Positions 681-56,625 of a DNA stretch of 64,000 nucleotides are shown in pieces. The notes beneath the pieces are model-generated. The model made no database searches, was not told where the DNA came from, and saw only the letters and a list, made by a program, of their open reading frames with translations. Position 1 is the first letter of the stretch; every line of letters starts with the position of its first letter. Origin of the DNA: Candidatus Marinacidobacterales bacterium (GTDB lineage: Bacteria; Acidobacteriota; Vicinamibacteria; Marinacidobacterales; SMYC01); the NCBI GenBank assembly GCA_965262245.1, contig OZ253507.1, positions 2,268,690 through 2,332,689 on the forward strand. The letters run 5' to 3'. A program made the translations under genes and the position numbers.

Positions 681-683
681 GCT

Positions 684-953: not shown

Positions 954-1193
954 CCTAGAAAATTGTACCGCAGGGCCTCAGCCCGTTTATCCATTTCAAA
1001 TTTGTCAAGATAAGCATCAATGTGCAAAACGTAAGGATGGCAGCGAATTCTGGCGCACCGAGTTCAAGATTCATCGTTAGTCCGTCTTTGTAAGCCCAAC
1101 GGACCAGGGCAAAGATGTCTCCGGTAAAGAATGCTGAGTTCCAAGCTAATTTCGCCTTCCGCACCGCCCGAGAATGTCATGAATGCGCGCGCG

Positions 1194-3473: not shown

Positions 3474-3483
3474 TCTGTCGCGT

Positions 3484-5335: not shown

Positions 5336-5808
5336 TTACGAAAGCATACCTTGCTGCGGGTCCAACTCTCCCCGTAGCTGCTTGCGGGCGCGGCGTAGAT
5401 GCGTGCGAATCGTTCCTTCGCCGACCCCGAGCATCCGTGCGGCTTCGACGCTGGTGAAGCCTTCGACGTTGCAGAGTCGAACGCACGATTGCTGCATGGG
5501 TGCGAGTGCCTCGATGGCCCGCTCGATGTCGGCAACCACGAGCGCATCAACGGCGGGCGGCGCCGGCGGCTCGTCTTGAAGCAAAGTGAGTGGAGCAAGA
5601 GCCGCGCGCCGACCATCCTTGCTGATCGCCGTTCGGGCCACGTTGCGAACGATGGTGTAGAACCATGCGCTGAACGGGCGCCGATCGTCGTAGTCCGCGA
5701 GGGCGCGTACCGCTCGATGGAAAGGTCCTGGACGACGTCCTCGGCATCTTCGAGGCGGCGCGTATATTGCCAGGAAAGGGCCATCGCGGGGCGCAGATAG
5801 CGGCGCAC
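5336..5808 (-). pseudogene. ECF sigma factor (sigma-70 regions 2 and 4) with a frameshift between the regions
   Basis: Region 2 (RRYLRPAMALSWQYTRRLEDAEDVVQD) is in the frame of ORF 4972..5808. FHRAVRALADYDDRRPFSAWFYTIVRN and region 4 (SFTSVEAARMLGVGEGTIRTHLRRARKQL) are in the frame of ORF 5336..6001. The frames switch at GGAAAGG (about 5718..5724). Confidence 0.6.
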
Positions 5809-6236
5809 GAGGACGCGCCATCATTTCGCGAAAGGGTTCCTCGAGCGTCTCACGCTGGGCGGCCGTTAATTCGAGCCGTTCGGCGATAGCGGTGAAGTGG
5901 TCCGGTGGGTCGGCAGAGTGGCCGTGCTGCGCCTCCCCGACTCCAACCGCGAAGACGGCGGCTAGCAACACGGTCATCATGGCGCGATGGTGTGTCCTCA
6001 TGGGTCAACTCCTCTTACATTTCGGGTGTGCTCCTCCTTTGGAGCACCCTCTTCCACACTGTACTCGCGAGAGCGCGGATCCGTTGACACCGACCCGCGA
6101 CTTTCTTCGATCTCCCGCTCTGGTTGCTTTCGGTCTCCCAGGCCGCTAGATTTCCCTATTACCAAAGGTTACGAATGGCGCTCACTTCCGGAACACGCCT
6201 CGGCTCCTACGCGATCGTTGCGCCGATCCTCACCGC

Positions 6237-7303
6237 ATGAAGATCTATCGTCTCGAGCCCGGGGTCCAACACTACGCCTGGGGCAGCACGGAGTTCATCC
6301 CGGAGCTACTGGGTGTCGATAACGCCGACGGGCGACCCTACGCGGAGCTCTGGCTCGGTGCGCATCCCGACTTGCCGTCAAAAGTCTTGTTGGGAGACGA
6401 GAAGCGCCCGCTCGGCGAGATGATCTCGGGCGAGCTTCCTTATCTCATGAAGATCCTCTCGGCGGCCAAGCCGCTTTCGATACAAACGCACCCGAGTGAA
6501 TCCCGGGCTCGCGAAGGATTCGCGAGGGAGAATGCGGCCGGGATCCCGATCGACGCGCGCCATCGCAGCTATCGCGACCCTCATCACAAGCCCGAGCTTC
6601 TCTGCGCCCTCACCGATTTCTACGTACTCCGGGGCTTTCGTCCCAACCCGACGTCGTTCGGCGACGAGCCCCTGAACACGCTCTACGCGAAGCTGATGAC
6701 GATGTCTCGAGACGAGGTCGATGCGGAGCTCGGGCCGATCGTGGAGAGCCTTGGCGACGGTCACTACGGGAAGGAGGATCGTGAATATTGGGTCCTCCGC
6801 TGTCACGAAGCATATTCCGAGAAAGGTCACTACGATCGTGGTCTTTTTTCGATCTATCTCTTGAACTTGATCCACCTCGACGCGGGCGAAGCCATTTATC
6901 TCGATGCAGGCACGCTCCACGCCTACCTTGAGGGATCCGGCGTCGAGATCATGGCCAACTCGAACAACGTGTTGCGCGGCGGGCTGACGACCAAGCACGT
7001 CGACATCCCCGAGCTTCTTAACAATGTCACCTTTCGCGGAGAGGCGGCGCAGATCGTGAGGGCGTCGAAGCTCGGCCCGAGCGAGTGGGCCTATCATGCT
7101 CCGGCGAAGGAGTTCGAGCTCCGCCGCATCGAAGGCGGTTACGTCAATACCGGCGACCATGGTCCCGAGATCCTTTTCGTCACCGAAGGCGAAGGGACCG
7201 TGGAGGAGCATCTTGTTTCGAGAGGCCAAGCGCTCTTCGTGCCGGAGGGAGAGACGTATCAAGTGCGAGGCTCGCTGGTGCTATACAAAGCGACGGTGCC
7301 GCG

Positions 7304-7307
<4 letters not shown>
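6237..7307 (+). CDS. manA: Mannose-6-phosphate isomerase, type I
   Basis: 356 aa with the PMI type I cupin core (YLMKILSAAKPLSIQTHP, ...HAYLEGSGVEIMANSNNVLRGG). Its stop overlaps the start of the next gene (ATGA). Confidence 0.9.
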
Positions 7308-8812
<1,505 letters not shown>

Positions 8813-8828
8813 GTTCTTACAGACTTGG

Positions 8829-10040
8829 CTACTGTTCGCGATCGTACGGGTGGCGAAGATAGTCGGCCGCCGTTCCGTGCGTGCCGTCGTAATCCGGAAG
8901 CTCTTGGACACGGCGATAATGCGCCGTGGCCTCTTCGCGGCGCCCCATTGTGTCGAGGATCTCGCCCGCGCGCAGATGTGAGAGGGCCCTCTCACGGTCG
9001 GGGGTCCCGGGGTCTTCCGCGGCGCCGCGAAACTGATCGAGCGCTTCATCTTGGCTTCCGAGCGCAAGCAGTCGTTGTGCGAGCGGATAGCGAATTTTGT
9101 CGAGCGGAAGGTTCTGATAGTTCGGAATCTTGTTGACAGCGCGCCGCGCGACCGTCGCGTAGGTTTTCGCCGCCTCGGCGTGCTTTCCCATCAGCTCCAA
9201 TATCTGGGCTTTATTGATATGCAGCAAGTAGTTTTCTGGATATTTGTGGTGCAGTTGCCCCGCCATCTCCAGGGCGTAGGCGTTCTCGTTCTCGCGGACA
9301 TACATGACCATCAGCAGCAGGCGGGCGTCGTCTTTGACGAAATGGCCCTTCGTCGCGGCGCGGGTGAGATATTCGAAGCCCCGGACTTCACTGCCGTGAT
9401 AGCCCGCAAGGGTGGCGATCCATTTGACGTACCAGGGAAGATTGCCGACGACATATTCGTAGGTCCCGACCGTCATGTACGCGTCATAGAAGTCGGGATT
9501 CTCGTCAACGATCGCGCGCTGGATACGATAGGATTCCTTGCCGTATTTGAGCGCCTTGCGAAAGCTTCTTTCGATGGTGAAGGCGAAAACGCCGAGAGCG
9601 CTCTGGCATGCGCCGAGGTAGTAGCGAGCCTCGAAATCTCTCGGATGTTGCTCGAGATAGCGTGTCGCGTTCTCCTGGCTCCGCCGAATGCCGTCGAAAA
9701 AAGCCTGTTTGTCCTCCACGGATATTTCCACGTCGGCCGGCCGGGTGAAATATCCCGGCGAGATGAAGCGCTCGAGGTCGAGCTCGTCGCGAGCGACGAG
9801 CTCACGAAACCAAATGGCGATCGATCGGGCCAACGGTGGCCCCGGATGGTGGGGATATTTTTTTTCGAGCTCGCTGAAGAAAGCGATGCTCTTGTCGTGC
9901 TCGAGGCTGTAGAGGTGGGTGTTCCCTTGGAGGCTCGCAGCCTTGTATTCGGGACTTCTCAGCTTCTCGGCGCTCGCCGCCACAGGCAAAGACGTTGCCA
10001 AAAAGACTCCCAACATACAGGAGCTAAACCCGAATCGCAT
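8829..10040 (-). CDS. Secreted TPR-repeat protein
   Basis: Signal peptide MRFGFSSCMLGVFLATSLPVAASA, followed by TPR-like helical repeats (YYLGACQ..., AYALEMAGQL...). Confidence 0.55.
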   Translation of the reverse strand: MRFGFSSCMLGVFLATSLPVAASAEKLRSPEYKAASLQGNTHLYSLEHDKSIAFFSELEKKYPHHPGPPLARSIAIWFRELVARDELDLERFISPGYFTRPADVEISVEDKQAFFDGIRRSQENATRYLEQHPRDFEARYYLGACQSALGVFAFTIERSFRKALKYGKESYRIQRAIVDENPDFYDAYMTVGTYEYVVGNLPWYVKWIATLAGYHGSEVRGFEYLTRAATKGHFVKDDARLLLMVMYVRENENAYALEMAGQLHHKYPENYLLHINKAQILELMGKHAEAAKTYATVARRAVNKIPNYQNLPLDKIRYPLAQRLLALGSQDEALDQFRGAAEDPGTPDRERALSHLRAGEILDTMGRREEATAHYRRVQELPDYDGTHGTAADYLRHPYDREQ

Positions 10041-10175
10041 CCGGTAAACGCTCTCCCAAATTATAGGCGCGATAATACAACACTAACATAGAAGAAGGAG
10101 AGGTCCTTCTTGAAATTGGCGTGAGCAATTCCGGGCTCGGTAGAAAGGTATAATCAGCGTCGTTTTGGAATCAAC

Positions 10176-10871
10176 ATGCAGGCGCCACGGCATCCCGATC
10201 TGATTTCCACTCCCGTGGTCCGCGTCCAGGATCTGGCCTTCGGCTATGGCGAAGGGGATTTCGAGTTGCGGATTGGAGAGCTCGAAGTCGGACGGGCATC
10301 CTCGGCGGCGTTCATCGGTCCGAGCGGATCGGGTAAGACGACGCTTTTACATCTCATCGCGGGGATCACGCTGCCGCAGTCGGGTACGATCGAGACGAAC
10401 GGAGTCGATCTAACCGGTCTTTCGGAGAACGCGCGCCGCGGCTTTCGCATCAAGAATATCGGCCTCGTCTTTCAGGAGTTCGAGCTTTTGGAATATTTGA
10501 CGGTGCTCGACAACGTGCTCTTGCCCTATCGCATCAATCCGGCGCTCGAGCTGACGGAGGCGGTTCGCGCGAGGGCGGCTGCCGTGACGGTGGATGTGGG
10601 AATAGGAGACAAGCTCTCGCGCTATCCGAGACAACTGTCGCAGGGCGAGCGGCAACGAGTGGCGGTGTGCCGCGCGGTCGTGACCGAGCCGGCCGTGCTG
10701 ATGGCGGACGAGCCGACCGGCAATCTCGACCCGCACAACAAAGGACGCGTGCTCGACATCCTGTTCGATTATGCCGAGGCGAGCGGCGCGACGCTTCTCA
10801 CGGTGACGCATGATCACGATCTGCTCGACCGTTTCGAGCGCGTCGTCGACTTCAAAGAGCTCTTGTCGTGA
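10176..10871 (+). CDS. ABC transporter ATP-binding protein (LolD/MacB-type)
   Basis: Walker A GPSGSGKTTL, signature LSQGERQRVAVCRAV, Walker B VLMADEPTGNLD. The stop overlaps the permease start (GTGA). Confidence 0.85.
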   Translation: MQAPRHPDLISTPVVRVQDLAFGYGEGDFELRIGELEVGRASSAAFIGPSGSGKTTLLHLIAGITLPQSGTIETNGVDLTGLSENARRGFRIKNIGLVFQEFELLEYLTVLDNVLLPYRINPALELTEAVRARAAAVTVDVGIGDKLSRYPRQLSQGERQRVAVCRAVVTEPAVLMADEPTGNLDPHNKGRVLDILFDYAEASGATLLTVTHDHDLLDRFERVVDFKELLS

Positions 10872-11553
10872 AGCAGACGCTCTATCTGGCTTGGCGCTAT
10901 CTGGCGTTTCACCCTCTGAAGACGATCATCCTGCTCACGTCGATCACGTTGATCCTTTATCTCCCTGTAGGCTTGCGGGTCCTCGTGAACCAAAGCTCGG
11001 AACAGCTGACGCGCCGCGCCGACGCGACGCCGCTCGTCGTCGGCTCGAAAGGGAGCCCACTCGAGCTCGTGCTCAACACCCTCTACTTCCGCTCAGACTT
11101 CCCCGAGCCGATGCGCTATAGCGAGGCGCAGGAAGTCCAGGATTCCGGGCTCGCGTCGATCGTGCCGATGTATGTTCGCTACCACTCTCGAGGCCATCCG
11201 ATCGTGGGGACGAGCGTTGAATATTTCGAACGTCGCGAGCTCGGGGTGCAGGTGGGGCGCCTGTTTACGTTTGTCGGCGAGTGCGTTCTCGGGGCGCGCG
11301 TCGCCGAAGCGTTGGGGGCGCATGTGGGAGACGCGGTCATCTCTTCGCCTGAGAACCTCTTCGACCTAGCGGGCGAATATCCCCTGAAGATGAGGATCGT
11401 GGGCATTTTGGCGCTCGAGGACAGCCCGGATGACGACGCGATCTTCGTGGACATCAAGACGACGTGGATCATTGAAGGGATCGGCCACGGTCACCAGGAT
11501 GTGACGCGCCGTGAGGCGGCGGGTGCCGTGTTGTCGCGCGAAGGCAATCGAGT
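10868..11553 (+). pseudogene. FtsX/MacB-type ABC permease, 3'-truncated by an IS fragment
   Basis: N-terminal TM helix and MacB-like periplasmic domain are present (MKQTLYLAWRYLAFHPLKTIILL..., VGSKGSPLELVLNTLYF). The C-terminal FtsX TM domain is missing; the ORF runs into the IS-end fragment at 11554. Confidence 0.65.
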
Positions 11554-11730
11554 GCACAATGTCGATGTGCATGGTTACTATATACTCTATTAAAGATTAT
11601 ATTACAAGAGTTATATGCGTTATTACATGGCTACAAAATGCAGGCGGAGTTCGTATCTCTATCGTTGTAACTCCTTGCAACTAAGGGTGCTTCACCGAAG
11701 AAAGAGAGGTTTTACCGAGGGGAACTTCAG
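11554..11730. mobile_element. Solo left-end fragment of the IS1634-like element
   Basis: 177 bp ~98% identical (2 differences) to 50475..50650, in the same orientation. It contains the IS terminus, the 5' UTR and the first 6 codons of the transposase (MHIDIV). No transposase body follows. Confidence 0.85.
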
Positions 11731-11745
11731 GCTAGAAGTTTCTTT

Positions 11746-15864: not shown

Positions 15865-16426
15865 CGTCTGACTCCCTTTCGGGCTTTCAAGAAAACTCCG
15901 AGCTTTCGAATACCGCGAAAGACTTGCGTGCGTGCAGTGACCTCGTTGCAGCCGAGGGTTTCGGCAATGACGCGCATCGGAGCTCGTCGAAAAACCGCAT
16001 CGTCACGGCCGCGCGCTGGCCTTCGGGCAGACGCTCGAGGGCTGCTTTCACTGCTGCGGCGCTCTCCGCGCGCAGCAAGCTCGTTTCCGCTTCGGCAGGC
16101 GCGACGTCGATCGGCCTCTGCTCTTCGTCGATGCGGGCTCGCCGGCTCACTTTGCGCCTGTCCTCGATTGCGCGGTTGACGGCAATGCGGCAGAGCCAAG
16201 GATAGAAGCGCTCGGGCTCCCTCAGCCGAGGTAGCTCCTTCAGCGCGGCTACGTAAGCGTCCTGTACCATGTCTTCTGCCAAAATCCTGTCTCTGACGAC
16301 TCCAAAAACGACGTGCACCACGCGATGGTAATAGCGGCGGTGAAGCTCGCCAAAGCTATCCAAATCTCCGGAAAGCGTTCTTTCGACGAGCTTTACGTCT
16401 GCGTGTGCTTCAGCGAGCTCGGGCAT
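15861..16426 (-). pseudogene. ECF sigma factor with a -1 frameshift before region 4
   Basis: Region 2 (DMVQDAYVAALKELPRLREPERFYPWLCRIAVNRAIE) and LPEGQRAAVTMRFFDEL are in the frame of ORF 15887..16426. The region-4 HTH (MRVIAETLGCNEVTARTQVFRGIRKL) is in the frame of ORF 15861..16199. The shift is near 15975..15982. Confidence 0.6.
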
Positions 16427-44914: not shown

Positions 44915-45154
44915 TGAAGTTGGATGATGTCGTTGAGGCTAACGCTTCCGAGTGTTCCGAAAATTTGGCGATCGGGGTCTTTGGATAATTGGCCACGAGA
45001 ATGTTCCCTTCAGCGGGGGCGAGCGGGCTTCTTATAGATAAAGAGTCGCGAGCGCCGAAAAAGATAGATATAGCGGCGTAAATAGCTCTTTGCCGGGAAT
45101 TTATGCGGATGAGATGAGTGAAGTGGTTGCAATTGGCGGAGGCGGCACGTACAT

Positions 45155-46159
45155 TTGGTCTTCCGCCGACTCTTGACCGTTGGTTTTGTTGCATCCCCTG
45201 TGAGCTTCTGGATCGGTCGTATCGCCCAAGCGCTGTTCGCGCTGTTTGCGGTGTCGATCTTGGCGTTTCTGTTTCTCGAGCTTGCGCCGGGAGACTACTT
45301 GGATCGCATGCGGCTCAGCCCGCAAATCTCCCGGGAAACACTCGAGGCGATGCGCGTTCAATACGGACTCGACCGACCTTTCGTGGAGCGCTACTGGACG
45401 TGGCTTGGCGCGGTCGTCACGGGCACGTGGGGTTTTTCGTTCGCTTACGGCATCGCAGTCGCACCGCTCGTGTGGGGACGCGCCATGAATACGCTCGTGC
45501 TCGGCGCGAGTGCTCTCGCCGTGGCCTGGGCGCTCGCATTGCCCGTCGGCGTTTGGTGGGCTACGCGCCGGAGCACGAACGTGTTTTCCTTGGGGTTTCT
45601 GACCTCCGTCATCCTCGGCTTTCCCGAGCTCATCTTGGCGCTAGCCATGCTCGTGCTCGCCGAGAGGTCGGGGGCCTTCCCTGTTGGAGGGATGCGCTCG
45701 ATCGGCGCCGGCGATCTTTCGACATTGGGACGCGCGCGCGACCTTCTGTGGCATCTCGTGCTTCCGGTTACGACTCTCGCGCTCCCAGCCTTCGCGGTGC
45801 TCGTACGCCACGTGAAAGCGGCGGTCGAAGACGTGATGGAAGAGACGTTCGTCTGCAACGCCCGCGCTCTCGGCGTCACTGGACGAAGGCTCGTGCTCCA
45901 CCACATCTTACGTCCCGCCGCGAATCCTCTCATCTCGATTGCGGGCTTGTCTGTCGCGTCACTTCTCAGCGGTTCCTTCATCGTCGAGGTTGTTATGGGC
46001 TGGCCGGGTCTCGGGCCGTTTCTTCTCGAAGCGATCCGCGCGCGCGACGTCCACGTCGTTATCGGCGGCGTGATGTGCTCGGCGGTGCTCGTCGTCGCCG
46101 GTGGTCTTCTGACAGACGTCTTTCTCTACCTCAACGATCCCAGAATGGAGTCGGGATGA
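45155..46159 (+). CDS. ABC transporter permease (DppB/OppB-like)
   Basis: 334 aa with 6 TM helices and the binding-protein-dependent permease EAA-like region (...ARALGVTGRRLVLHHILRPAANP). Confidence 0.85.
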   Translation: MVFRRLLTVGFVASPVSFWIGRIAQALFALFAVSILAFLFLELAPGDYLDRMRLSPQISRETLEAMRVQYGLDRPFVERYWTWLGAVVTGTWGFSFAYGIAVAPLVWGRAMNTLVLGASALAVAWALALPVGVWWATRRSTNVFSLGFLTSVILGFPELILALAMLVLAERSGAFPVGGMRSIGAGDLSTLGRARDLLWHLVLPVTTLALPAFAVLVRHVKAAVEDVMEETFVCNARALGVTGRRLVLHHILRPAANPLISIAGLSVASLLSGSFIVEVVMGWPGLGPFLLEAIRARDVHVVIGGVMCSAVLVVAGGLLTDVFLYLNDPRMESG

Positions 46160-47173
46160 GGCGCGACACGAAGCTCTCAGCACTCTTGCTGCTCTTGGCG
46201 TCGATTCACGGAGTCGCGATCCTCGCAGGGTTCTTCTCGCCCTATTCGTATCGCGAGCAGAATCGCGACGTGCCGCTTGCGGCGCCGACCAAGCTGCGAT
46301 GGGTCGATGGGAGCGGCGGGTGGCATCTGCGCCCTTTGGTCGAGAGCCCCCTTGCGGGCGGCGCATTGGTGCCGCTTCGCTTCTTCGTTCGGGGTAGCTC
46401 TTATTCGGTTTTGGGTCTGTTCGGATCGGACTTACATCTCTACGGCGTCGATGAGCCTCATCGCGTCTTTCTTCTTGGTACCGACGCTCTCGGGCGCGAT
46501 TATTTTTCGCGGCTCGTCGTCGGCGCACAGGTGTCGCTGACAGCAGGCCTCGTCGCTGCGGCGCTCGCTCTCACCACGGCCTTGAGCCTCGGCGCTCTCG
46601 CCGGCTATTTCGGCGGCTTCATCGACTCTGCGATCATGAGACTCGTGGACGTGTTCTTGAGCTTGCCTTGGATTTACATGCTTCTCGCCGCGCGCGCTTT
46701 TCTCCCCCTCGACATGGCGCCGGGGACGGCGTTTTTCGTGATCGTCGTGCTTCTCGGCCTTTTGGGATGGCCGGCGCCGACGCGCATCGTGCGCGGCATC
46801 GTGATGAGCGCGCGCGCGCGACTACGTCGAAGCCTCCCGGGGCGCCGGCGCCGGGCACCTCCACTTGCTCTAGCGCCACATCCTCCCACAGGCTCAAAGC
46901 GCGATAGCGATCCAAGCCACCCTGCTCGTGTCCGCCTACATGCTTGCCGAAGTCACCCTTTCCTACGTGGGCCTCGGCGTCGGCGAGCCCCTGCCGAGTT
47001 GGGGAAATATGCTTGCCGACCTGCCGCGGGGGAGCCTTCTCGGCGCCGAACCCTGGACCTTCGCACCGGCCTTCTTGCTTGTCGGCGTGACTTGGCTCTA
47101 TCATTCGGTCCTATCGTCTCTCGGGGGCCATCATTCGCGCGGGAGTTGGGGGCGCGACGCGAGGTTGACTTGA
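46156..47173 (+). pseudogene. ABC transporter permease (DppC/OppC-like) with a frameshift in a (GC)6 run and an in-frame TAG
   Basis: The N-terminal part is in the frame of ORF 45118.. up to ...IVRGIVMSARAR. It continues in the next frame from GCGCGCGCGCGCG (46808..46820) as RDYVEASRGAGAGHLHLL*RHILPQAQ. The TAG at 46871..46873 replaces a sense codon. The C-terminus SAYMLAEVTLSYVGLGVGEPLPSWGNMLAD is ORF 46928..47173. Confidence 0.75.
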
Positions 47174-47205: not shown

Positions 47206-48627
47206 ATGTACGTGCTAGCGCATTTCATCCTTTTTTCTTGCTTTGCCGTTGTCGGCCACAGCGAGCAGCGCGGTGGCCGGCTCGTCGTGAGCGAAACGTC
47301 CGAGCCGAAACATTTCAACCCGGTTACGGCGGTCGATTGGGCGACGAAGACGGTGGTGGGTCTGCTGATGGCGGACCTCTTGCACATCGACCGTGAGGAC
47401 CAGAAGGTCTATCCGAACCTCGCCTCAGATTGGGACGTCTCCGAGGATGGGCGCAGCTATACGCTGACCCTTCGCGAGGGCGTTCGTTTCTCGGATGGTC
47501 ACCCCGTCGATGTGGACGACGTGCTGTTCTCCTTGCGGGTCAATCTCGACGAGGCGATCAACTCCCCGCAGCGGGGACTTTTTATCGTTGGTGGGGAGCC
47601 GATCCGGGCGCGCAAGCTCGGTGCGCGTCGTATCGCCTTCGAGCTCGCCGGGCCCTATGCCGCGGGCGAAAGGCTGTTCGACTCGTTCTACGTCTTGCCC
47701 CGCCATCGACTCGAAGAGTCCTATGAGAGCGGCGAGCTCGCGAGCGCGTGGGGCCTTCTCTCGGATCCGGAGCGCATCGTCGGCCTGGGTCCGTTCCGAC
47801 TCGAGCAAGTCGTGCCGGGCGAGCGGATCGTCCTTGAGCGCAACCCTTATTACTGGAAAGTCGACGAGGCCGGCGAGGCTCTGCCTCATCTCGATGAAGT
47901 GGTCATTCTCATGACGCCTTCGGAAGACGCGGAATTGTTGCGGTTCAAGGCCGGCGAGATTCACATGATCCAAGATCTAGGCTTCCGGGATTTCGACGCG
48001 CTCGATGCTGAATCGAGTTTCGCGATGCGCGATCTCGGCCCCGGGCTCGAGCACAACTTTCTGTTCTTCAATCTCAACGATCGCGCAGGCGGGGAAGACG
48101 AAGATCTGGACACCCGTCAGAGCTGGTTCCGGAACGACGCGTTTCGGCGCGCTGTGTCGGACGCCATCGATCGCCAGTCCATGGTGCGGCTCGTCTATGG
48201 AGGGCGCGCAGCGCCGCTCGCCTCACACGTCACGCCGGGAAACAAACTTTGGATCAACCGGAGTCTCGTCGTCGCGCCATATTCGGAGGCGCTAGCGAAG
48301 GAGAGTTTTCGAGACGCGGGCTTTCGATGGAACGAAGCGGAGCGCCTCGTAGACGCTGAGGGGCGCCTCGTGGAATTCTCGATCCTCACGAGTGCCGGGA
48401 ACCGTCCACGTTCCATGATGGCGAGCTTGATCCAGGAGGATTTGCAGCGGGTCGGGATCGAGGTCACCATCGCGACGCTCGAGTTCAGGGCCTATGTCGA
48501 TCGAATCTTTCAGGGACGTGATTTCGAGACGGCGCTTCTTGGTTTGGGAGGCTCGGACGCGGATCCGAATCCCGAAATGAGCTTCCTGGGTCGCAGTGGT
48601 GGAGCCAAGGCCTTTTCGGCGACATGA
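47206..48627 (+). pseudogene. ABC transporter substrate-binding protein, family 5 (Dpp/Opp-type), 3'-truncated at the IS insertion
   Basis: Signal peptide MYVLAHFILFSCFAVVG; SBP_bac_5 motifs through GLGGSDADPNPEMSF. The expected last ~70-80 aa are missing, and the ORF ends where the IS1634-like element begins. Confidence 0.7.
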
Positions 48628-50493
48628 GTTTCGTACGATAGAGGCAAGGTGGCGGAGCAGAGTTCTGAAACTGTAAGCGGGGCTTCCGTCCTCCAGCTTT
48701 TTGGAGCGCACTTTTCGAAGAGCGGCCTGCGAACGCTTGGCCGGTGCCACAGGGTCGCGGCTTGCCTTGGCATTCTGATCTTCGTCAGAAAAAAGCACTG
48801 GTCGCCACGCCTCAAGCATGTGCCATTCAACGTAGTAGGCCAGCATACACAAGAAGATGTGTGCCCGGACTCGGTTTTCGAGACGGTGGCGAATAGGCCG
48901 CACCTTGAGGTCCATGGTCTTGAATGAACGAAACGCACGCTCGACTTGGGTGAGCAACTTATAGCTGCGGACGGTATCCTCAGTGTTCATCTGCTGTGCA
49001 CTGAGACTGGTGCGAATCACATAGATGCCGTCCAGTGCGGCTTCTGCCTCGACCTTCTTTTTGTCGATTTCGAAGGAGAAGGCATCGTCACGAATATCTA
49101 GTTTGAAGTGTTTTCCGACTTTGTACTTGTTGAGAACTTTGCCTACCCGCACCCCTATAGTGGCTTTTCCATGGAGCTGACCGTGCTCGATTCGCTGACG
49201 CAGTTGCTCCATTCGCCTGGCGATAGTCTTCATATGCTGTTTCCACCGGGCGAGTTGCTTGTCAGCTAACACACTATTGTCTTTAGCAATGTGCGCAGCA
49301 TCGACAGCCATCGTCGTCTCGTCGACCTTGAAGTCGAAGCCGTCGTCACGGGTCTCGAACTTGTAGTACTTGCCCACCTTGTATTCAGCAAGGAGTTTTT
49401 GCACTCGGGCATTGATGTCTTCCCTACCGTGCAAGCGGCCGCGTTCGACCATCCGGCAAATCCTTTTCAGTTCTTTGCTGGTCGCTTCGAGCAATTCCTG
49501 ACGCTTTAGGGCTCGGCGCTTCGCCAGTTCGTGGTTGCGACAGGCCACGAGACGCTCGTTGGGAAAATCCGAGTGTGTCAACTCAAACAAGTTGCGCTCG
49601 TCAAACAGCCCCATCTGCAGCGCCCCTTCGTTGAGGAGTTTGCGAATCGGCGCGGGTCGCAGGGCTGTAATCCAATCAATGCCCTCGAAGTCCTGTAAAG
49701 CGTCAACCTGTCTTTGGGTGATCATTCCGCGGTCGCCGACCATCACAAACCGCTTGATGCCGAACTGCTCTTGCACCTTTACTACTTGAGGTAGAAACGT
49801 TTTCGGATCGCCGGTGTTGCCCTCGAACACCGATACCGAGACAGGGACGCCCCTTTGGTTGGTCAAAAGGCCGTAGTTGATCTGGAGTTTGTTTTTCTTA
49901 CCGTCGCGGTTGTATCCGAGGCGGGCCAGGGGGCACTTTTCTCCCTCGAAGTAGCTTGAGCTCAAATCGTACAAACCAAGTCCACCGTTTTCGAGGTGAC
50001 GCGCCGCCAGTTTTTTCTCAATAACCCTTTGGCGCTCGAACACCCAGTCCATAGCGGCATATAGGTCGTCCTCGTCGGCATCACTCACACCGAGGATTTC
50101 GGGCAACGTTGTGCTGTGCCACCACTGGCTCGTTGCCAACCTCGACTGGGCTTCGAGTATGCGGGCGGCCACCATAGCCACCACCAGGTCACGTTGGCGT
50201 GAGCGTCGGGATGCGACGAGTTTGTCGAACTCAAGGCGTTTCATCGCGCTCAACACGGCCTCGACGCCACCGTGGAGTCGCGACCCGTCGGGCACAACCT
50301 CGAAGACGTCCTCGACCGCGACGAGTTTTTCTCCCTTGAGAACCCGTCGAATGGAGTCGACCTGCTCGCTTGGCAGTTTGGACAGGTTGGCAATTGTGCG
50401 CTTGCGCGGTTTCTTGCTTTTGGCGTCGCGAAAGGACTCACGGAGCAAAACGGCGGGTTTGGAGTTGCGGTTGGGCACAATGTCGATGTGCAT
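48292..50493 (-). CDS. Large DDE transposase (IS1634/IS4-like), 733-aa ORF; C-terminal ~100 aa probably read-through into flanking DNA
   Basis: Begins MHIDIVPNRNS; long transposase typical of the IS1634 group. Family-level call from length and architecture only. Confidence 0.6.
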   Translation of the reverse strand: MHIDIVPNRNSKPAVLLRESFRDAKSKKPRKRTIANLSKLPSEQVDSIRRVLKGEKLVAVEDVFEVVPDGSRLHGGVEAVLSAMKRLEFDKLVASRRSRQRDLVVAMVAARILEAQSRLATSQWWHSTTLPEILGVSDADEDDLYAAMDWVFERQRVIEKKLAARHLENGGLGLYDLSSSYFEGEKCPLARLGYNRDGKKNKLQINYGLLTNQRGVPVSVSVFEGNTGDPKTFLPQVVKVQEQFGIKRFVMVGDRGMITQRQVDALQDFEGIDWITALRPAPIRKLLNEGALQMGLFDERNLFELTHSDFPNERLVACRNHELAKRRALKRQELLEATSKELKRICRMVERGRLHGREDINARVQKLLAEYKVGKYYKFETRDDGFDFKVDETTMAVDAAHIAKDNSVLADKQLARWKQHMKTIARRMEQLRQRIEHGQLHGKATIGVRVGKVLNKYKVGKHFKLDIRDDAFSFEIDKKKVEAEAALDGIYVIRTSLSAQQMNTEDTVRSYKLLTQVERAFRSFKTMDLKVRPIRHRLENRVRAHIFLCMLAYYVEWHMLEAWRPVLFSDEDQNAKASRDPVAPAKRSQAALRKVRSKKLEDGSPAYSFRTLLRHLASIVRNSCRRKGLGSTTATQEAHFGIRIRVRASQTKKRRLEITSLKDSIDIGPELERRDGDLDPDPLQILLDQARHHGTWTVPGTREDREFHEAPLSVYEALRFVPSKARVSKTLLR

Positions 50494-50650
50494 GGTTACT
50501 ATATACTCTATTAAAGATTATATTACAAGAGCTATATGCGTTATTACATGGCTCAAAATGCAGGCGGAGTTCGTATCTCTATCGTTGTAACTCCTTGCAA
50601 CTAAGGGTGCTTCACCGAAGAAAGAGAGGTTTTACCGAGGGGAACTTCAG
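48292..50650 (-). mobile_element. IS1634-like (IS4 superfamily) insertion sequence; left end at 50650 well defined, right end about 48600..48630
   Basis: The left end is defined by identity to the solo copy at 11554..11730. The right end is inferred from where SBP homology stops and from a subterminal motif similarity (48630..48650 vs 50575..50600). The transposase ORF reads through the presumed right end to 48292. Confidence 0.65.
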
Positions 50651-50739
50651 TTTATCAGTTTGGTCAGCCCTCACATCCTCGTCGGGGCGAAAGCGACGCT
50701 GGGGAATTTTCGTCCCGGGATCCTGCCGCCTTATACGCT

Positions 50740-51372
50740 TTGGAACGCCGAAGAGCTCTTCTGGACGAGATGAGCGCGCGCGAGGCTCGGAATCTGAATC
50801 CGAGCGATGCATGGACCGACCTGCGTCTCGTTCGCGCCTGCCTCGATGGGAGCGAGGATGCGTGGAACGCGATTCTCGACAAATACAAGCGGCTCATCTA
50901 CTCGATCCCGATCAAACACGGCTTCTCGCCCGAGGACGCGTCCGACATTTTCCAATCCGTATGTGTGGAGCTGTTGAAGGAGCTCCCGCGGCTGCGCGAA
51001 CCACGCGCTCTCGCCGGCTGGCTGATCAAAGTCACGGCCCACAAATGTTTTCATTGGCAGCGCACGGAGTCTCGCTACGTAAAGACGGAGAACCCGCCAG
51101 CGCCCGTTTTCGAAGGGCCGGATCTCGACGAGCTTCTCGACGCCGTCGAGCGCGAGCAAATGCTTCGCGACGCTATGGGCTCGCTCACCGCCCGATGCAA
51201 GAAACTCGTCTCGATGTTGTTCTTCGACTTTCCGCTCACACCTTATGACGCGGTGGCCAAGAAGTTGGGGCTTGCCCGCGGCTCCATCGGGTTCATCCGC
51301 CGCCGCTGTCTCGATCGTCTGAAGAGGAATCTCGAGGAGCGAGGCTACAAGGGACGCCTGCCACGTGACTAG
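50740..51372 (+). CDS. ECF sigma factor
   Basis: Region 2 (SDIFQSVCVELLKELPRLREPRALAGWLIKVTAHKC) and region 4 (LTPYDAVAKKLGLARGSIGFIRRRCLDRL). Probable real start at a downstream ATG (about 50770). Confidence 0.8.
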   Translation: MERRRALLDEMSAREARNLNPSDAWTDLRLVRACLDGSEDAWNAILDKYKRLIYSIPIKHGFSPEDASDIFQSVCVELLKELPRLREPRALAGWLIKVTAHKCFHWQRTESRYVKTENPPAPVFEGPDLDELLDAVEREQMLRDAMGSLTARCKKLVSMLFFDFPLTPYDAVAKKLGLARGSIGFIRRRCLDRLKRNLEERGYKGRLPRD

Positions 51373-54241
51373 CGATCGGGACCAGTTGCTGATGAGCGAG
51401 CTGGGGAAGCTGACGGAAGACGACGCCTTGCAAGCGTTCATCAGACGTCACCCGGAGCTTGTTCGGAGTGACTTCGTCGGGGCGCTCTCGGACACTGTTG
51501 TGAAGCAAGTTCGCGTGGACGCCGATGCGGCGCTCGCGCTCGCGCGGGCGAGCTGCGCGATAGCGGACGAGCTCGGGGAGGAGCGAGATCTTGCGCAAGC
51601 GGAGAAAGCGATGGGAAACGCTTTCTACGGACTAGGAGAATATCGTGTTGCGGTCGATCGTTACGAGCAATCGGCGGCGCGTTTCGAGGCATGCGGTGAG
51701 AACGTGGAGCAGGGAAGGGCCCTCAGCACTTCGATTCAGGCGCGTATTCTCCTCGGCGATTATGACTCCGCCGCCGACGCCGCGGAGCGCGCCCGAACGA
51801 TCTTCGAGAAGATCGGCGATCGGAAGCGTCTGGCTATCCTCGACAACAATGTCGGGAACATCATGCATCGCCAGGACCGGTTCCACGAAGCGCTCGCGAT
51901 GTATGAGCGCGCCTATCGAACGCTCGCCGAATTGCAGGATACGAATGGTGTCGCGGCCGCTCTGAGCAACGTGACCCTCTGTTTGATTATGCTGAACGAC
52001 TTCCCGCGCGCGCTCGAAATCCACCGCGAGGCGCGTGAGGTTTGTGAGGAGCTCGGCATGCCGAGGCTCGTCGCTCGCGCGGACTACAACATCGCTTACC
52101 TGTATTACCTCCGCGGGGAATATTCACGTTCGACCGAGATGTTGAACACCGCGCGACAACTGTTCAAACGCAGCAGCGACGATTATCACGTCGCTCTCTG
52201 CGACATGGATCAAGCGGAGATTTATATCGACCTGAATCTTCATGCGGAGGCGTCCCGTCTCGCGAGCCGCGCGCGCAAACAATTTGCCAAGCTCGGCACT
52301 GGATACGAACAAGCCAAATCGATGGCGCTCGAGGCGATAGCACTCAGCAATCAAGGGAAGATCCTTCGCGGGCTCGATCTTTTCGAGAAGGCGCGGGAAA
52401 GCTTCGTGCGGGAGAAGAACCAAGTGTGGCCGTGGATGATCGATCTTTATCGCGCGTTCGTCTATGGCGATGAAGGGCGGTTGATCGAGGCTCGGCAGCT
52501 TGCGCGCCGCGTGCTCCCCATCTTCGAGGAAGCGGGACTAGGGGCCAAAGCGATCGTCTGCCGGCTTCTCCTCGCGCGCCTCGCACTGAGAATCGGTGAT
52601 TGGCGAGCGGCGCGAAAAGACTGCGAGGAGGCTCTCGAGCGTGCGTCGGCCATCGATTCGCCTCTCTATGTCTTCCAGGCGAGGTTCCAGATGGGCGAGA
52701 TCGAGGAGGCCGCGGGCCACACGGCCGAGGCCATCCAGAGCTTCGAGGCGTCGGCCAAAACACTCGAATCCTTGCGCAGCAGTCTTCAGCGCGAAGAGAT
52801 GAAGATCGCTTTTCTTCGTAATCGGTTGGGTGTCTACGAGTCGCTCGTCGATCTGTGCCTGAAGAGCGCCCCGGGCACTGAGCCTAGGACTGAGCTTGAT
52901 CTTGACGCGAAAGAAAAGGCGCTTTACTACATCGAGCAGTCGAAAGCACGAGCGCTCGTAGATCTCATCCTCGGCTCGATCCGCGGCCGGCCACACGCCT
53001 CGGGCGAGAGTGAGTTCGCGCGCACGGTCCAGAAGCTCAGAGAAGAGCTCAATTGGTACTATCGCCGTATCGAGCACGAGCAGCTGAGCCGTGAGTCCTT
53101 CAATCTCTAGCGTTTGGAGGAGCTCACCAAGACCGCCCGGGCGCGAGAGACCGAGCTTCTCGATGCGCTGCGGGAGCTTCCTGCCGGCGACGGCCGTTTC
53201 GGGAGTTTGCGCGATACTGGGGCCGTGTCTCTGGCGCGCATTCAAGAGGCGCTTGGGCCGAATCGCTCTCTCATCGAGTACTACATTGCGCGCGGACGGG
53301 TCTACGCTTGCGTGATCACACAAAGCGATCTCGTCATGCGCCCGCTCGGGGACGCCGAGCACGTCAAGAACACGGTACGGCGGCTTCAGTTCCAGATTTC
53401 GAAGTTCCAGCTGCCGCGAGACTATCTTGCGACGTTCGAAAGCTCGATCCACGAGGCGACCGTCGTTCACTTGAACGAGCTCTATGAAAGTTTGGTCGGA
53501 CCCCTCGTGGATGCGCTGCGGGGAAGCGAGCTCGTCATCGTTCCCCACGCTTTCATGCACTACCTACCGTTTCACGCGTTTTATGACGGCCGTCGCTACG
53601 TCGTCGACGACTATGCGGTGTCCTACGCTCCGAGTGCGACTGTTTTCGTTCACTGTCACGAGCTTCCGGCCGCGGAGGGGAATCGCTCCTTGATCTTGGG
53701 TATTCCGGATCGGACCGCTCCGTTTATTCTGGACGAGGTGCACGCGGTCGCGGATGCGGTTTCCGAGCCCGAGGTTCTGCTCGGCTCGGAGGCCTCGCTC
53801 AAGGCGCTGCGGGAGAAGGCGCCTGGTAGCCGGCTCATGCACATCGCCACCCATGGCCGAAAGGACAACCCGATGTTCTCGGCGATCCGGCTCGGCGACT
53901 CCTACTTGAGCCTCTACGATCTCTACGAGCTGTCATTGCCCGTGGACCTCGTGACGGTGAGCGCTTGCGCGACAGGCTTGAGTGTCGTGGTGGAAGGTGA
54001 CGAGATTCTCGGACTCGTTCGCGGCTTGCTCTTTGCGGGGGCGCGGTCTTTGGTCGCGACGCTTTGGAACGTGCAGGACCGGGCGACGGCCGACTTGATG
54101 GGCTCGTTCTATTCGCATTTGCGAACGGAGAAAAATCGCGCCGTGGCACTTCGCTATGCTATGCTCCAGCAGCGAGAAAGGTCTTCCCAGCCTTTCTTTT
54201 GGGCTTCCCGCGTGTTGGTGGGCAAGGTGGAGCAGGGGTGA
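51365..54241 (+). pseudogene. TPR-repeat + CHAT (caspase-like) peptidase, one reading frame interrupted by an in-frame TAG at 53108..53110
   Basis: ORF 51365..53110 carries TPR repeats. ORF 53114..54241, in the same frame, carries the CHAT domain with the His/Cys dyad (MHIATHGRKD; VTVSACATG). The sequence reads ...SFNL*RLEEL.... Confidence 0.75.
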
Positions 54242-54364
54242 AAGCTAAGTCCTTGTTGGGTAGGTGTTTATGGGTCCCTCTGTATCTTTCGCTGGTTCGG
54301 TGACTCTTTATTGCAAAGCGGCAATACTGGGTTGCACGGTACAGGAATCTTGGAGGGTTCAGGC

Positions 54365-54991
54365 ATGAGTCACTACCCCGATGAGGTGTGGGCGGATTGG
54401 GTGCGCGGGACCACGACCGCTGAGCTAGCAGATGAGATCCGGGCTCATCTGAGCTCCGGCTGCGACCCATGCGAGGATGGGGTCGCCATGTGGGCGTCCG
54501 TTTTGGAGCTCGTGAACCAGGAAGCTTCGTTCGAGCCGCCCGTGGAAGTACTGAAAATCGCGAGTGCGCTCTTCGCGCAACTTCGACCCCAGGAACGAAA
54601 GTTCGGGCCGATTCGAGTCGCGGAGCTCTTGTTCGACAGCTTTAGAAATCCCCTGCCCGCCGGCGTTCGGAGTCTCGAGCGCGCCGCGCGGCATCTCAGC
54701 TACAAGGTGGCGGACTTCTTCGTCGACGTCCGCATCGAAGAGCAACCCAGCGGAGGCCAGGCTTCAGTGGTTGGACAGCTCCTCCATCATCCGGATGCCT
54801 CGGCGTTCTCGCTCGAGGGGCTTCCGGTTGTTTTGACGAGCGGCCGCGCGACACTTGCCGAAACGACAACGAATCAATTTGGTGAGTTCATGTTCGAGAT
54901 GGATTCGGAGCGAGAGAACCATCTAGCTATTGCGATGGGAGACGAGTTCGCCTTGGTAGTGCCGCTCGGGAGGCGGCGAGGTCACGCTTGA
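54365..54991 (+). CDS. Putative zinc-finger (zf-HC2-like) anti-sigma factor with C-terminal beta-sandwich (carboxypeptidase-regulatory-like) domain; no TM helix
   Basis: N-terminus MSHYPDEVWADWVRGTTTAELADEIRAHLSSGCDPCEDG (H...C..C motif). C-terminal GLPVVLTSGRATLAETTTNQFGEFMFEMDSE resembles CarboxypepD_reg-like folds. Confidence 0.45.
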   Translation: MSHYPDEVWADWVRGTTTAELADEIRAHLSSGCDPCEDGVAMWASVLELVNQEASFEPPVEVLKIASALFAQLRPQERKFGPIRVAELLFDSFRNPLPAGVRSLERAARHLSYKVADFFVDVRIEEQPSGGQASVVGQLLHHPDASAFSLEGLPVVLTSGRATLAETTTNQFGEFMFEMDSERENHLAIAMGDEFALVVPLGRRRGHA

Positions 54992-55074
54992 AGAGGTGGC
55001 AGGAGGAAAGACATCTGGAAGGGAGATTTAGCCCAAGTTTCTTTTGAGGGGACCACGGGGGTTAATCCGACATC

Positions 55075-56472
55075 ATGCAACGCGTTCTAATTCGGTCTAT
55101 TTGTTTATTACTCTCCGTATTCCTGTCCGCGTTCCCGGCGGCCTCTGAAGAATACTTTCTTGTCCGGGTCGACGACGAGCGCAAGAGCGACGAGACCGAA
55201 GTACAGCTCCTCGAGCGTTTGGGCTTTATCTATATGCGGTCCGTCGATTCCGGCCGCCGTGAGGTACACCTCGTCTCGGCGCCGTACGAGCTCTCGAAAT
55301 CCTTTATCAGAGAGTTGAAAAGGTCCGAGCGCCGGCTTCGCAACATCGAGCTCGTCGAAGATCTATATCTCACCGATATGGTCGAGAATGAGGCGCGCGC
55401 AAGTGCTTTTAAGGGTGCGCTCGACTACGCGGAAGCGATCGCTTCACAAGGCAGCAAAAAGGAGAACTTCCACGGCGCGAAGGTGCTCAGAGGCTATGCC
55501 AAGCAACGCCTCGTGGACATCCTGGATTTCGATTCGGTCCATCGTCACTACGGAACCGGTGACGGCGTTATCGCGGTCATCGATACGGGCGTCGACCCCT
55601 TTCACCCCGGCCTCGTGGGCAGTCTCGTCCCAGGCTACGATTTCATTTTCGACGAGCCTGGCTACGCGTCGGAGTGGAGAGAGCTCGATCCCGAGCTGTC
55701 CCAACAGCTCATGGAGTCCGGATCAGGAAGCGTCGATCAATCCTCGGTGGCTATCCTCAGCCAATCTTCCGTCGCGATTCTGAACCAATCCTCGGTTGCC
55801 ATCCTGAGCCAATCCTCGGTCGCCATCTTGAGTCAGCCCGAATATCAATCATTCGGCCACGGCACGATGGTGGCGGGCGCGATTCGCCTCGCGGCTCCCA
55901 CCGCGAAAATCATGCCGCTCAAGGCCTTTGGCCCAGATGGCACAGCGAGCACGGCGGATATCGTCGACGCGATTTACTTTGCTGTCGCGAACGGGGCCGA
56001 CGTGATCAACATGAGCTTTAGCTTAAGGACTTTCTCCGAAGAGACCATGCGGGCGATCAATCATGCGACGCGCCAAGGTGTCATCTGCATCTCGGCGGCG
56101 GGCAATCTCGGTACGGAAACGCTCGTCTATCCTGCCGCCCTGGCCAACGTGACCGGCGTTGCCGCTGTTACGGAGGATCAAGAGCTGAGCTCCGTCTCGA
56201 ATTACGGTGAAGATCTGGTCAGCCTGGCAACGTTTGGTGAAGCGTTGGTGACGACCTATCCCGGCGGTCTCTATGCTAGCGTCTTCGGAACGTCTTTTAG
56301 CACGGACATCGTCTCCGGAGCCGTCGCCATTTTCCGCGAAATCGATGAGAACTTGGACCAACACGGGGCAGAGACGGCCTTGGCCATGAAACGGCCTCGA
56401 TCCGGCGATCTCGGCCACGGCGTGCTCGAGCTCGAAGCCGCGCTGAAGATGTTCAAGAAGAAAAAGCGTTAG
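55075..56472 (+). CDS. Secreted subtilisin-like serine protease (peptidase S8) with an internal octapeptide repeat insert
   Basis: Signal peptide; catalytic Asp (VIAVIDTGVD), His (HGTMVAG), Ser (GTSFSTDIVSGAVA). Between Asp and His there is a 4x (QSSVAIL[SN]) insert. Confidence 0.85.
   Translation: MQRVLIRSICLLLSVFLSAFPAASEEYFLVRVDDERKSDETEVQLLERLGFIYMRSVDSGRREVHLVSAPYELSKSFIRELKRSERRLRNIELVEDLYLTDMVENEARASAFKGALDYAEAIASQGSKKENFHGAKVLRGYAKQRLVDILDFDSVHRHYGTGDGVIAVIDTGVDPFHPGLVGSLVPGYDFIFDEPGYASEWRELDPELSQQLMESGSGSVDQSSVAILSQSSVAILNQSSVAILSQSSVAILSQPEYQSFGHGTMVAGAIRLAAPTAKIMPLKAFGPDGTASTADIVDAIYFAVANGADVINMSFSLRTFSEETMRAINHATRQGVICISAAGNLGTETLVYPAALANVTGVAAVTEDQELSSVSNYGEDLVSLATFGEALVTTYPGGLYASVFGTSFSTDIVSGAVAIFREIDENLDQHGAETALAMKRPRSGDLGHGVLELEAALKMFKKKKR
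55738..55833 (+). repeat. 4 x 24-bp in-frame tandem repeat encoding QSSVAILS/N within the S8 protease
   Basis: The copies differ at synonymous third positions (tcg/tcc, gtg/gtc/gtt, gct/gcg/gcc) while the peptide is conserved. Confidence 0.9.
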
Positions 56473-56475
56473 CGG

Positions 56476-56625
56476 CTTTCAAAAAGCGTAACGCGAGCCG
56501 AAGCCGCAACCAGCGAAGACCAATCTCCGTCTTCATCCCACTTCCCCGTTTTTATCCCCACCTCTCCCTGCTTTTAACACCGCTCAAAGCCAAGGAGAGG
56601 TGGGGATAGAAGGAGAGGTGGGGAC
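56476..56625. terminator. Inverted-repeat/hairpin region between convergent genes (S8 protease and PPIase)
   Basis: GCGGCTT...AAGCCGC hairpin directly after the protease stop. CCCCACCTCTCC ... GGAGAGGTGGGG (x2) inverted repeats further downstream. Confidence 0.4.

Follow-up and report, generated by a model that had tools for sequence, protein, structure and literature searches.

A decaying copy of a conserved Acidobacteriota operon and its possible CRISPR-independent TPR-CHAT switch on an ECF sigma factor

The gene array and its counterparts in related bacteria

We describe here a gene array in a 64,000-nucleotide stretch of contig OZ253507.1 (assembly GCA_965262245.1, positions 2,268,690 to 2,332,689) from a Candidatus Marinacidobacterales bacterium of the phylum Acidobacteriota; this whole 64-kb stretch is called the window, and all coordinates of the array refer to it. 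The array encodes a sigma factor of the extracytoplasmic function (ECF) type, a protein that combines tetratricopeptide repeats (TPR) with a CHAT peptidase domain, a soluble anti-sigma-like protein (open reading frame 4, ORF4) and a subtilase of the S8 family (S8), and all of its genes lie on the plus strand. A sequence-only reading had presented these as a cluster of four same-strand genes. All of these reading frames do exist on the plus strand, but they make up only the 3' part of a module that begins near position 45155 and has at least seven genes. Moreover, the earlier account lacked the genes of an Opp-type importer, an insertion of an IS1634-type element, a motif upstream of ORF4 and octapeptide repeats in S8.

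The module begins with permease 1 of an Opp/Dpp-type ABC importer (45155..46159), which is intact, contains the Pfam domains BPD_transp_1 and BPD_transp_1_N and shares 73% identity in tblastn with permease 1 of the related locus L001 (loci of relatives are given by L numbers throughout). Permease 2 (46156..47173) is a pseudogene: in tblastn its alignment runs in frame 1 over 46159-46815 and in frame 2 over 46820-47140, and a stop codon falls inside it. The next gene, coding for a family-5 (peptide-type) solute-binding protein, is cut in two. Its 5' part (47206..48588) aligns in tblastn with residues 43-492 of the L001 binding protein, its junction was placed by comparison with the contig of a sister strain (L078), and it is followed by a 2,062-bp IS1634-type element in minus orientation (48589..50650). 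On the other side of the element there is a 3' remnant (50651..50773) whose translation ends in ...SLVSPHILVGAKATLGNFRPGILPPYTLWNAEELFWTR before the stop codon, matching the C-termini of the L001 and L078 binding proteins. Downstream lie the intact sigma gene (50770..51372), the TPR-CHAT gene (51365..54241, 958 codons), a promoter-like motif (54277..54312), ORF4 (54365..54991, 208 amino acids) and the S8 gene (55075..56472), which is directly followed by a convergent cyclophilin gene. A scan of the cluster for sigma-70 promoters and terminators gave nothing beyond what was seen with shuffled sequence.

The sigma gene encodes a protein of 200 amino acids without any extension that is 67% identical to residues 1-200 of the L001 sigma factor. 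It belongs to the ECF (group IV) sigma-70 family as judged from the TIGR02937 sigma70-ECF model (68.2 bits, cut-off 42.9) and Sigma70_r2 (35.5 bits, cut-off 24); Sigma70_r4 stays below its threshold (17.5 versus 24.1 bits). The start that had been assumed at position 50740 has to be moved: the likeliest start is the ATG at 50770, which overlaps the TGA stop of the binding-protein gene as ATGA, and in intact relatives the sigma gene is translationally coupled to the binding-protein gene. The overlap at the other end of the gene was read correctly before; it comprises 8 nt, the TPR-CHAT gene starts with GTG, and relatives show the same overlap. The main text of the paper that reclassified the ECF sigma factors makes no mention of CHAT. 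Elsewhere in the window (16142-16411, minus strand), a weak tblastn match to the module sigma with 32% identity in 90 residues probably marks another ECF sigma gene.

Conservation of the sigma/TPR-CHAT/anti-sigma synteny in relatives had been set beforehand as a test of the regulatory reading. We scanned one genome per GTDB species and derived synteny counts by tblastn from those loci that had enough flanking DNA. The scan gave 68 loci, nearly all of them from Acidobacteriota, including Candidatus Acidiferrales, Terriglobales and Bryobacterales, as well as one from Verrucomicrobiia and one from Candidatus Cybelea. The sigma, TPR-CHAT and S8 genes accompany ORF4 in 49 of the 56 evaluable loci, each from a distinct species, and 43 of 53 have the complete set of seven, in the order two permeases, peptide-binding protein, sigma, TPR-CHAT, ORF4 and S8. 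Three long contigs carry this same array, i. e. two BPD_transp_1 permeases, the family-5 binding protein, the ECF sigma factor, a TPR-CHAT protein of 949-979 amino acids, ORF4 and Peptidase_S8, and on each of them the sigma start overlaps the binding-protein stop. In L036, L069 and L072 the gene order is shuffled with linkage kept. The synteny thus holds, and it survives rearrangement. The chromosomal location of the module, flanked by housekeeping genes, is stable, and the module appears to have been passed on vertically across orders.

The importer can be more complete than in the window. A full Opp/Dpp-type set with the family-5 binding protein, two permeases and two ATPases is found in L012, L067 and L077, where the Opp-type ATPases (ABC_tran) are part of the module array; they lie upstream of the permeases in L012 and L067, and those of L012 and L077 contain an oligo_HPY domain. 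A conserved "promoter" upstream of permease 1 was considered and rejected, as it corresponds to the Walker-B coding sequence of the ABC ATPase genes.

Two variant modules bear on the question of which parts belong together. In L077 (JGI Ga0643741_0017844, 2-7953), the TPR-CHAT gene is preceded by an AraC-type helix-turn-helix (HTH) gene and the N-terminal domain of the ORF4 homologue is receiver-like; the pair of sigma factor and anti-sigma domain has thus been replaced, and the TPR-CHAT protein, the beta-sandwich of ORF4 with its FDSFRYPLPAGVRS loop, S8 and the Opp ATPases have been kept. L057 (Verrucomicrobiia, 6406-11691) has no sigma gene, and of ORF4 the beta-sandwich part alone is left. 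Since these two loci swap or lose the rest, the constant partner of TPR-CHAT is the C-terminal domain of ORF4. Judging from the sequences, the N-terminal domain of ORF4 matches whichever transcription factor is present.

Lesions in the window and in sister strains

The module of the window carries at least four lesions: (i) Permease 2 is frameshifted inside a (GC)6 run (46808-46819). (ii) The same gene contains an in-frame TAG at 46871-46873. (iii) The IS1634-type element stands in place of 165 bp (55 codons) of the binding-protein gene and now lies between the sigma gene and the upstream promoter region of the operon. (iv) The TPR-CHAT frame is interrupted by a TAG at 53108-53110. This last stop codon had been noticed before, with the suggestion that the module may be dead in this strain; the stop is indeed present, and the suggestion gains support beyond the original claim from the other lesions. 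The corresponding codon is GAG (Glu) both in a metagenome-assembled genome (MAG) that is 89% identical (L007) and in a 97-99% identical strain (L078), as well as in L008.

The inserted element is assigned to the IS1634 type by its DDE transposase (NCBIfam transpos_IS1634, NF033559, 317 bits, cut-off 100; Pfam DDE_Tnp_1). The transposase reading frame starts at 50493 on the minus strand and has no stop codon inside the element, and no matching terminal inverted repeats were found for it. Because the frame lacks a stop and because the 165 bp of target are missing rather than duplicated, the left end of the element is probably truncated. A solo 188-nt copy of its right end, 96.8% identical and comprising the first few transposase codons and the terminus ...GGGGAACTTCAG, lies at 11554-11741 and is probably the remnant of another deletion associated with an insertion sequence (IS).

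Two public contigs from strains that are 97-99.5% identical (L078 and L079; ENA ERZ25074053 and ERZ25069191) were compared with positions 40001-64000 of the window and act as independent resequencing. Both lack the 2,062-bp segment and contain the 165 bp. L078 has four frameshifting indels, all of them in the 1.1-kb CHAT part. L079 has lost the sequence corresponding to window positions 51838-53484 of TPR-CHAT by a 1.6-kb TPR deletion or inversion, carries further indels in CHAT and S8, the latter with a frameshift, and its permease genes are rearranged beside an IS66-type transposase. The more distant L007 lacks 957 bp of the catalytic part of S8 (SMYC01000195.1 3054-3056 versus window 55548-56504). 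The flanking alignments of 2.4 kb and 3.5 kb between the strains contain 0 and 1 gaps, respectively, and the housekeeping genes are clean. According to these sequences, sister strains are losing the module independently of one another. In comparison with L007, the ratio of non-synonymous to synonymous substitutions (dN/dS) amounts to 0.05 at the end of the TPR region, 0.11 in CHAT and 0.16 in ORF4; therefore, the genes were under purifying selection until recently, and their loss is recent.

Could the stops and frameshifts have arisen in sequencing or assembly, from long-read metagenome data of low coverage, with a module that is functional in the organism? The position of the permease-2 frameshift in a (GC)6 run, the labelling of the sister contigs with 9x and 11x coverage, the occurrence of both in-frame TAGs in the same octamer CTCTAGCG and the low dN/dS values would all fit such an explanation. 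However, a 2-kb IS in place of 165 bp is not a base-calling error, each strain as well as L007 has a different lesion, and the frameshifting indels of the three strains fall inside the module, those of L078 even within the CHAT part, with next to no gaps in the flanks. Since CTCGAG is unchanged 85 times in the window, a systematic miscall can be dismissed, and we regard the artefact explanation as quite improbable.

The two copies of the octamer that contain the TAGs (46868-46875 and 53105-53112) are the only ones in 64 kb, and the ancestral state at the second site is CTCGAGCG. The shared octamer could be due to chance or to a context-specific G>T process. Both a systematic miscalling of CTCGAG as CTCTAG and a reassignment of the stop codon were considered and rejected: CTCGAG is intact at its 85 occurrences, TAG also ends the sigma and S8 genes, and there is no tRNA gene in the window.

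The TPR-CHAT protease, ORF4 and the motif upstream of ORF4

The interrupted TPR-CHAT gene has two halves. The first (51365..53110) encodes a 581-aa TPR array (Pfam TPR_12, E = 4e-32), and the second (53114..54241), in the same frame after the TAG, a caspase-like CHAT peptidase domain (PF12770, 203.5 bits, E = 6e-60) in which the catalytic His (..ATHG..) and Cys (..SAC..) are kept. In the orthologues the two halves form a single frame of 945-979 amino acids, and the dyad motifs are found in 52 of 60 of them. The protein, like ORF4, is predicted to reside in the cytoplasm. The only sequence relatives of the CHAT part in the PDB are Csx29 chains of Craspase (8d9f, 7x8a, 7zoq; E about 4e-5), and the His and Cys of the window protein align with those of Csx29. 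The NCBIfam Csx29 model (NF041237) gives 57 bits (E = 1.5e-15), well under its cut-off of 300, which places the protein outside the Csx29 family itself. Moreover, no cas genes were present among the called genes in the neighbourhoods of relatives, so that the genomic association typical of Craspase and type III-E systems is not seen there, and PADLOC returned only generic TPR and subtilase matches, nothing specific.

The relationship to Csx29 raises the question whether we are dealing with a relative of Craspase that acts by itself against phages or in abortive infection, with TPR-CHAT sensing infection and the sigma factor switching on a defence regulon. The closest solved relatives and the E-value of the Csx29 model are in line with this idea, a TPR-CHAT anti-sigma factor has been tied to phage defence in the DdvA/DdvS system (PMC11506125), and independent losses, as seen here in the sister strains, are typical of defence genes. 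On the other hand, the neighbourhoods contain no cas or other defence genes and only generic PADLOC hits, the module sits stably between housekeeping genes with apparent vertical inheritance across orders, it shares one operon with a nutrient-type peptide importer, and the Csx29 score remains far under the cut-off. We therefore consider a role in defence highly improbable.

ORF4 has no Pfam or NCBIfam match above threshold, and a homologue search yielded 74 proteins, none with a functional name, mostly from metagenome contigs and one attributed to Vicinamibacterales. In the family alignment H28, C33 and C36 are invariant and H3 is nearly so, giving the motif H3...H28-x4-C33-x2-C36, with x5 spacing in some members. 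The alignment also contains the strongly conserved segment LLFDSFRxPLPAGVRS and a motif TTNQFGEF. The AlphaFold model (predicted local distance difference test score, pLDDT, 83.8) shows four amphipathic helices (residues 6-73) and a beta-sandwich (residues 83-200) and no long hydrophobic helix. The strongly conserved segment appears in the window protein as the loop FRNPLPAGVRS at about residues 92-107, which in the model is exposed within the C-terminal CarboxypepD_reg-like beta-sandwich; model confidence is lower around residues 91-110, i. e. at this loop. CarboxypepD_reg itself is weakly matched by 29 of 66 family members. The best structural match of the model is the zinc-binding anti-sigma factor RslA, and the family profile finds RsiW among PDB sequences (E = 0.025). 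Thus, the helical part of ORF4 is predicted to have the four-helix fold of anti-sigma domains.

ORF4 had been classified earlier as a soluble anti-sigma factor of the zinc-binding anti-sigma (ZAS) type with a C-terminal beta-sandwich. The four-helix fold, the lack of a transmembrane helix and the beta-sandwich stand, but the canonical motif does not: ORF4 has H-x4-C-x2-C and so falls outside the strict H-x3-C-x2-C definition, and it scores only 12 bits with Pfam zf-HC2 (cut-off 22.2). From sequence and model taken together we conclude that ORF4 is soluble and has a class I anti-sigma domain whose zinc-type motif departs from the canonical form.

A conserved element precedes ORF4 in the intergenic region of most loci. 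Its consensus is CCTATATTTTT-N11-ACCCTTAT, which can also be written as CCTATATTTTT-N11-(A)CCCTTAT. When the strict pattern was applied to 1.19 Mb of related loci, 36 of 39 matches lay 60-105 nt upstream of ORF4. In the 64-kb window, the sole match on the plus strand is the one at 54277-54312 (CCTCTGTATCTTTCGCTGGTTCGGTGACTCTTTATT), exactly upstream of ORF4, where it was found by a position-weight-matrix scan. The scan revealed additional, weaker sites: the motif is present at the operon start in L042, L066 and L067 (in L067 a gene for a fused double ATPase follows at a distance of about 340 nt) and just downstream of S8 in L063 and L065-L067. We infer that the motif may be a promoter used by the module's own sigma factor. 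Sites were located at L042:18, L066:1395, L067:1437 and L063:11984. A second match in the window (45037-45070, minus strand) lies in the intergenic region between a thiolase gene and permease 1 and points away from the operon. The motif of L007 is more degraded than that of the window.

A candidate proteolytic switch and its relation to known systems

We lean towards the view that the window holds a decaying copy of a conserved Acidobacteriota operon that encodes a CRISPR-independent TPR-CHAT switch on an ECF sigma factor, possibly fed by imported peptides. Regulated proteolysis of the anti-sigma factor had already been suggested in the sequence-only reading, a suggestion that is supported in part. 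The intact operon would produce the Opp/Dpp-type importer (with its ATPases in many lineages), the ECF sigma factor and a cytoplasmic TPR-CHAT protein of about 950 amino acids, and would have a motif of its own in front of ORF4 and the exported S8. ORF4 would hold the sigma factor by its N-terminal zinc-type anti-sigma domain. The TPR array would sense a cytoplasmic signal and thereby activate the CHAT dyad, and CHAT would then cut ORF4, probably in the conserved exposed loop of the beta-sandwich. The freed sigma factor would transcribe the ORF4-S8 unit, in a feedback, and in some lineages the importer operon itself. As the importer and an exported subtilase are co-encoded, peptides that are generated outside by S8 and brought in by the importer would be the most economical candidate for the signal.

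The closest precedent is Craspase, in which Csx30 binds and inhibits the ECF-type CASP-sigma with its N-terminal domain and is cut by Csx29 within a flexible loop of the C-terminal one (PMC10028731). Both systems encode a TPR-CHAT protease near an ECF-type sigma factor and a soluble two-domain inhibitor, this role being a predicted one for ORF4, and the window CHAT domain has Csx29 as its sole solved sequence relatives, with His and Cys aligned. The differences are equally clear: The module lacks Cas7-11/gRAMP, CRISPR RNA (crRNA), Csx31 and a CRISPR array, its CHAT protein reaches 57 of the 300 bits of the Csx29 model, ORF4 is composed of a zinc-type anti-sigma N-terminus and a CarboxypepD_reg-like beta-sandwich, the activating signal cannot be a target RNA, and the module shares its operon with a peptide importer and a subtilase. 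Csx30 did not turn up when solved structures were searched with the ORF4 profile; no direct comparison of ORF4 and Csx30 was made.

The second precedent is DdvA of Myxococcus, a zinc anti-sigma domain that is fused by a transmembrane helix to a periplasmic TPR-CHAT part and whose release needs RseP; fusions of the DdvA type were found by the authors only in Myxococcota and in one Comamonas (PMC11506125). Here as there, an ECF sigma factor, a zinc-type N-terminal anti-sigma domain and TPR-CHAT belong to one regulatory unit in which proteolysis by CHAT is the proposed trigger. In DdvA the anti-sigma domain and TPR-CHAT share one polypeptide with a transmembrane helix, whereas TPR-CHAT and ORF4 are encoded by separate genes. 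By analogy, the locus would operate in the manner of the Craspase sigma branch and, more broadly, of anti-sigma systems under protease control. Only two cases of an ECF sigma factor controlled by TPR-CHAT are known to date, that of Craspase and that of the DdvA fusion, the latter as a proposal only. When the literature was searched for earlier accounts of the module, nothing but the papers on Craspase and DdvA came up.

With the classical pairs of ZAS proteins and ECF sigma factors (RslA-SigL, RsiW-SigW, ChrR-SigE and RsrA-SigR), ORF4 has in common the helical N-terminal anti-sigma domain and the sigma gene nearby. The His and Cys ligands of ChrR are H6, H31, C35 and C38, and the ligand positions of ORF4 are similar. 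ORF4 differs from these proteins in the spacing H-x4(5)-C-x2-C instead of H-x3-C-x2-C and in its zf-HC2 score below threshold, in the absence of a transmembrane helix, in the protease gene that lies between the sigma and anti-sigma genes, and in the C-terminal beta-sandwich with its conserved loop.

Several observations weigh against the proposed switch. The spacing of the zinc motif in ORF4 is non-canonical, and zf-HC2 is matched by just 6 of 66 family members, all of them below threshold. In the lineage of the window no ATPase genes adjoin the permeases. The motif upstream of ORF4 does not resemble typical ECF promoters (AAC / CGT), and it is missing in some lineages such as L002. The repeats of S8 are a feature of a much wider S8 clade and are not specific to the operon. 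Five loci contain ORF4 and S8 without an adjacent sigma or TPR-CHAT gene. Finally, binding of the sigma factor to ORF4 and cleavage of ORF4 by CHAT are proposed by analogy, and the peptide signal is read from gene content.

Some of these points would suit a scenario in which ORF4 is a zinc anti-sigma factor of the ordinary thiol- or redox-sensing kind, as RsrA and RslA are, and lets the sigma factor go upon oxidation, and in which TPR-CHAT has another job than cutting ORF4, for instance the processing of imported peptides, the maturation or turnover of some other protein, or a role as scaffold. The conserved His and Cys ligands, the best structural match to RslA, the five ORF4-S8 pairs that lack an adjacent TPR-CHAT gene and the analogical nature of ORF4 cleavage all speak for it. 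Yet TPR-CHAT is located between the sigma gene and ORF4, or linked to both, in 49 of 56 loci and through rearrangements. Moreover, the AraC/receiver-like swap keeps TPR-CHAT and the C-terminal domain of ORF4 together, which argues for a relationship between these two, and Craspase is a direct precedent for a TPR-CHAT protease that cuts a sigma inhibitor. A purely redox-controlled ORF4 is thus possible but rather unlikely, and the cleavage of ORF4 by CHAT remains the reading that we prefer.

What the module means rests on the family and not on the pseudogenised copy of the window. As far as the sequences tell, the family stands alone and without CRISPR, and dozens of Acidobacteriota species have conserved it; the copy in the window is a pseudogenised example. 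If the proposal is true, the Csx29/Csx30/sigma branch of type III-E has a housekeeping-type counterpart, a new class of soluble anti-sigma regulation is added to the ECF repertoire, and extracellular proteolysis, peptide uptake and transcription become testably linked in oligotrophic soil bacteria. Few bacteria of the soil are as abundant and at the same time as poorly understood as those of this phylum, the Acidobacteriota. In addition, three near-identical strains with different lesions provide a natural record of module loss.

It is tempting to extend the proposal to S8. The enzyme contains a Peptidase_S8 domain (PF00082, 117.8 bits, E = 7e-34) with the intact triad D170 (DTGVD), H262 (HGT) and S407 (GTSFS) and a hydrophobic, signal-like segment at its N-terminus, in line with its earlier description as a secreted subtilase. 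The loop between the catalytic Asp and His contains octapeptide-like repeats: the window protein has four tandem copies of QSSVAIL(S/N) at about residues 222-254 (55738..55832; period 24, 4 copies according to TRF), with QSSVAILS as the unit, and all orthologues in L008-L074 have 2-6 tandem copies of units such as QSTAAILD, QHTAAMLD or QSTVEILD. The copies are near-identical within one protein and divergent between proteins, and repeats are present in most of the best 150 of 352 representatives of the wide S8 clade (E < 1e-30; P0075-P0224). The unit looks like a good subtilisin site, with a hydrophobic P4 and Leu or Met at P1. One could imagine that S8 cuts its own QSTAAILD-like octapeptide repeats, that Opp imports the products, and that their binding to TPR leads to the destruction of the anti-sigma factor by CHAT, which would amount to peptide self-sensing or cell-cell sensing in a Gram-negative phylum of the soil. 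Such a circuit would follow the quorum-sensing logic of RRNPP systems by means of a protease switch, and the module would be a free-living, ancestor-like relative of the Craspase sigma branch; taken as a whole we regard this scenario as improbable. Like the RRNPP systems of Firmicutes (Rap, NprR, PlcR and PrgX; PMC3601965), the module joins a peptide source or exported protease to uptake by an Opp-type importer and to a putative TPR receptor in the cytoplasm, a functional likeness that is speculative. Its output, in contrast, would be a protease acting on an anti-sigma factor instead of an HTH or phosphatase domain, and it is found in another phylum. No small pro-peptide gene of the RRNPP kind was identified at the module, for which no systematic search was made.

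Two further observations concern the S8 gene. Its first 450 nt, the propeptide region, differ by about 14% between the window (55075-55525) and L078 (5046-5500), strains that are otherwise about 99% identical, and this hotspot of divergence may stem from recombination or from relaxed selection. A gene for an HD_5 (HD-GYP-like) protein, absent from the window, follows S8 in L001 (10115-10849) and L012 (12247-13014).

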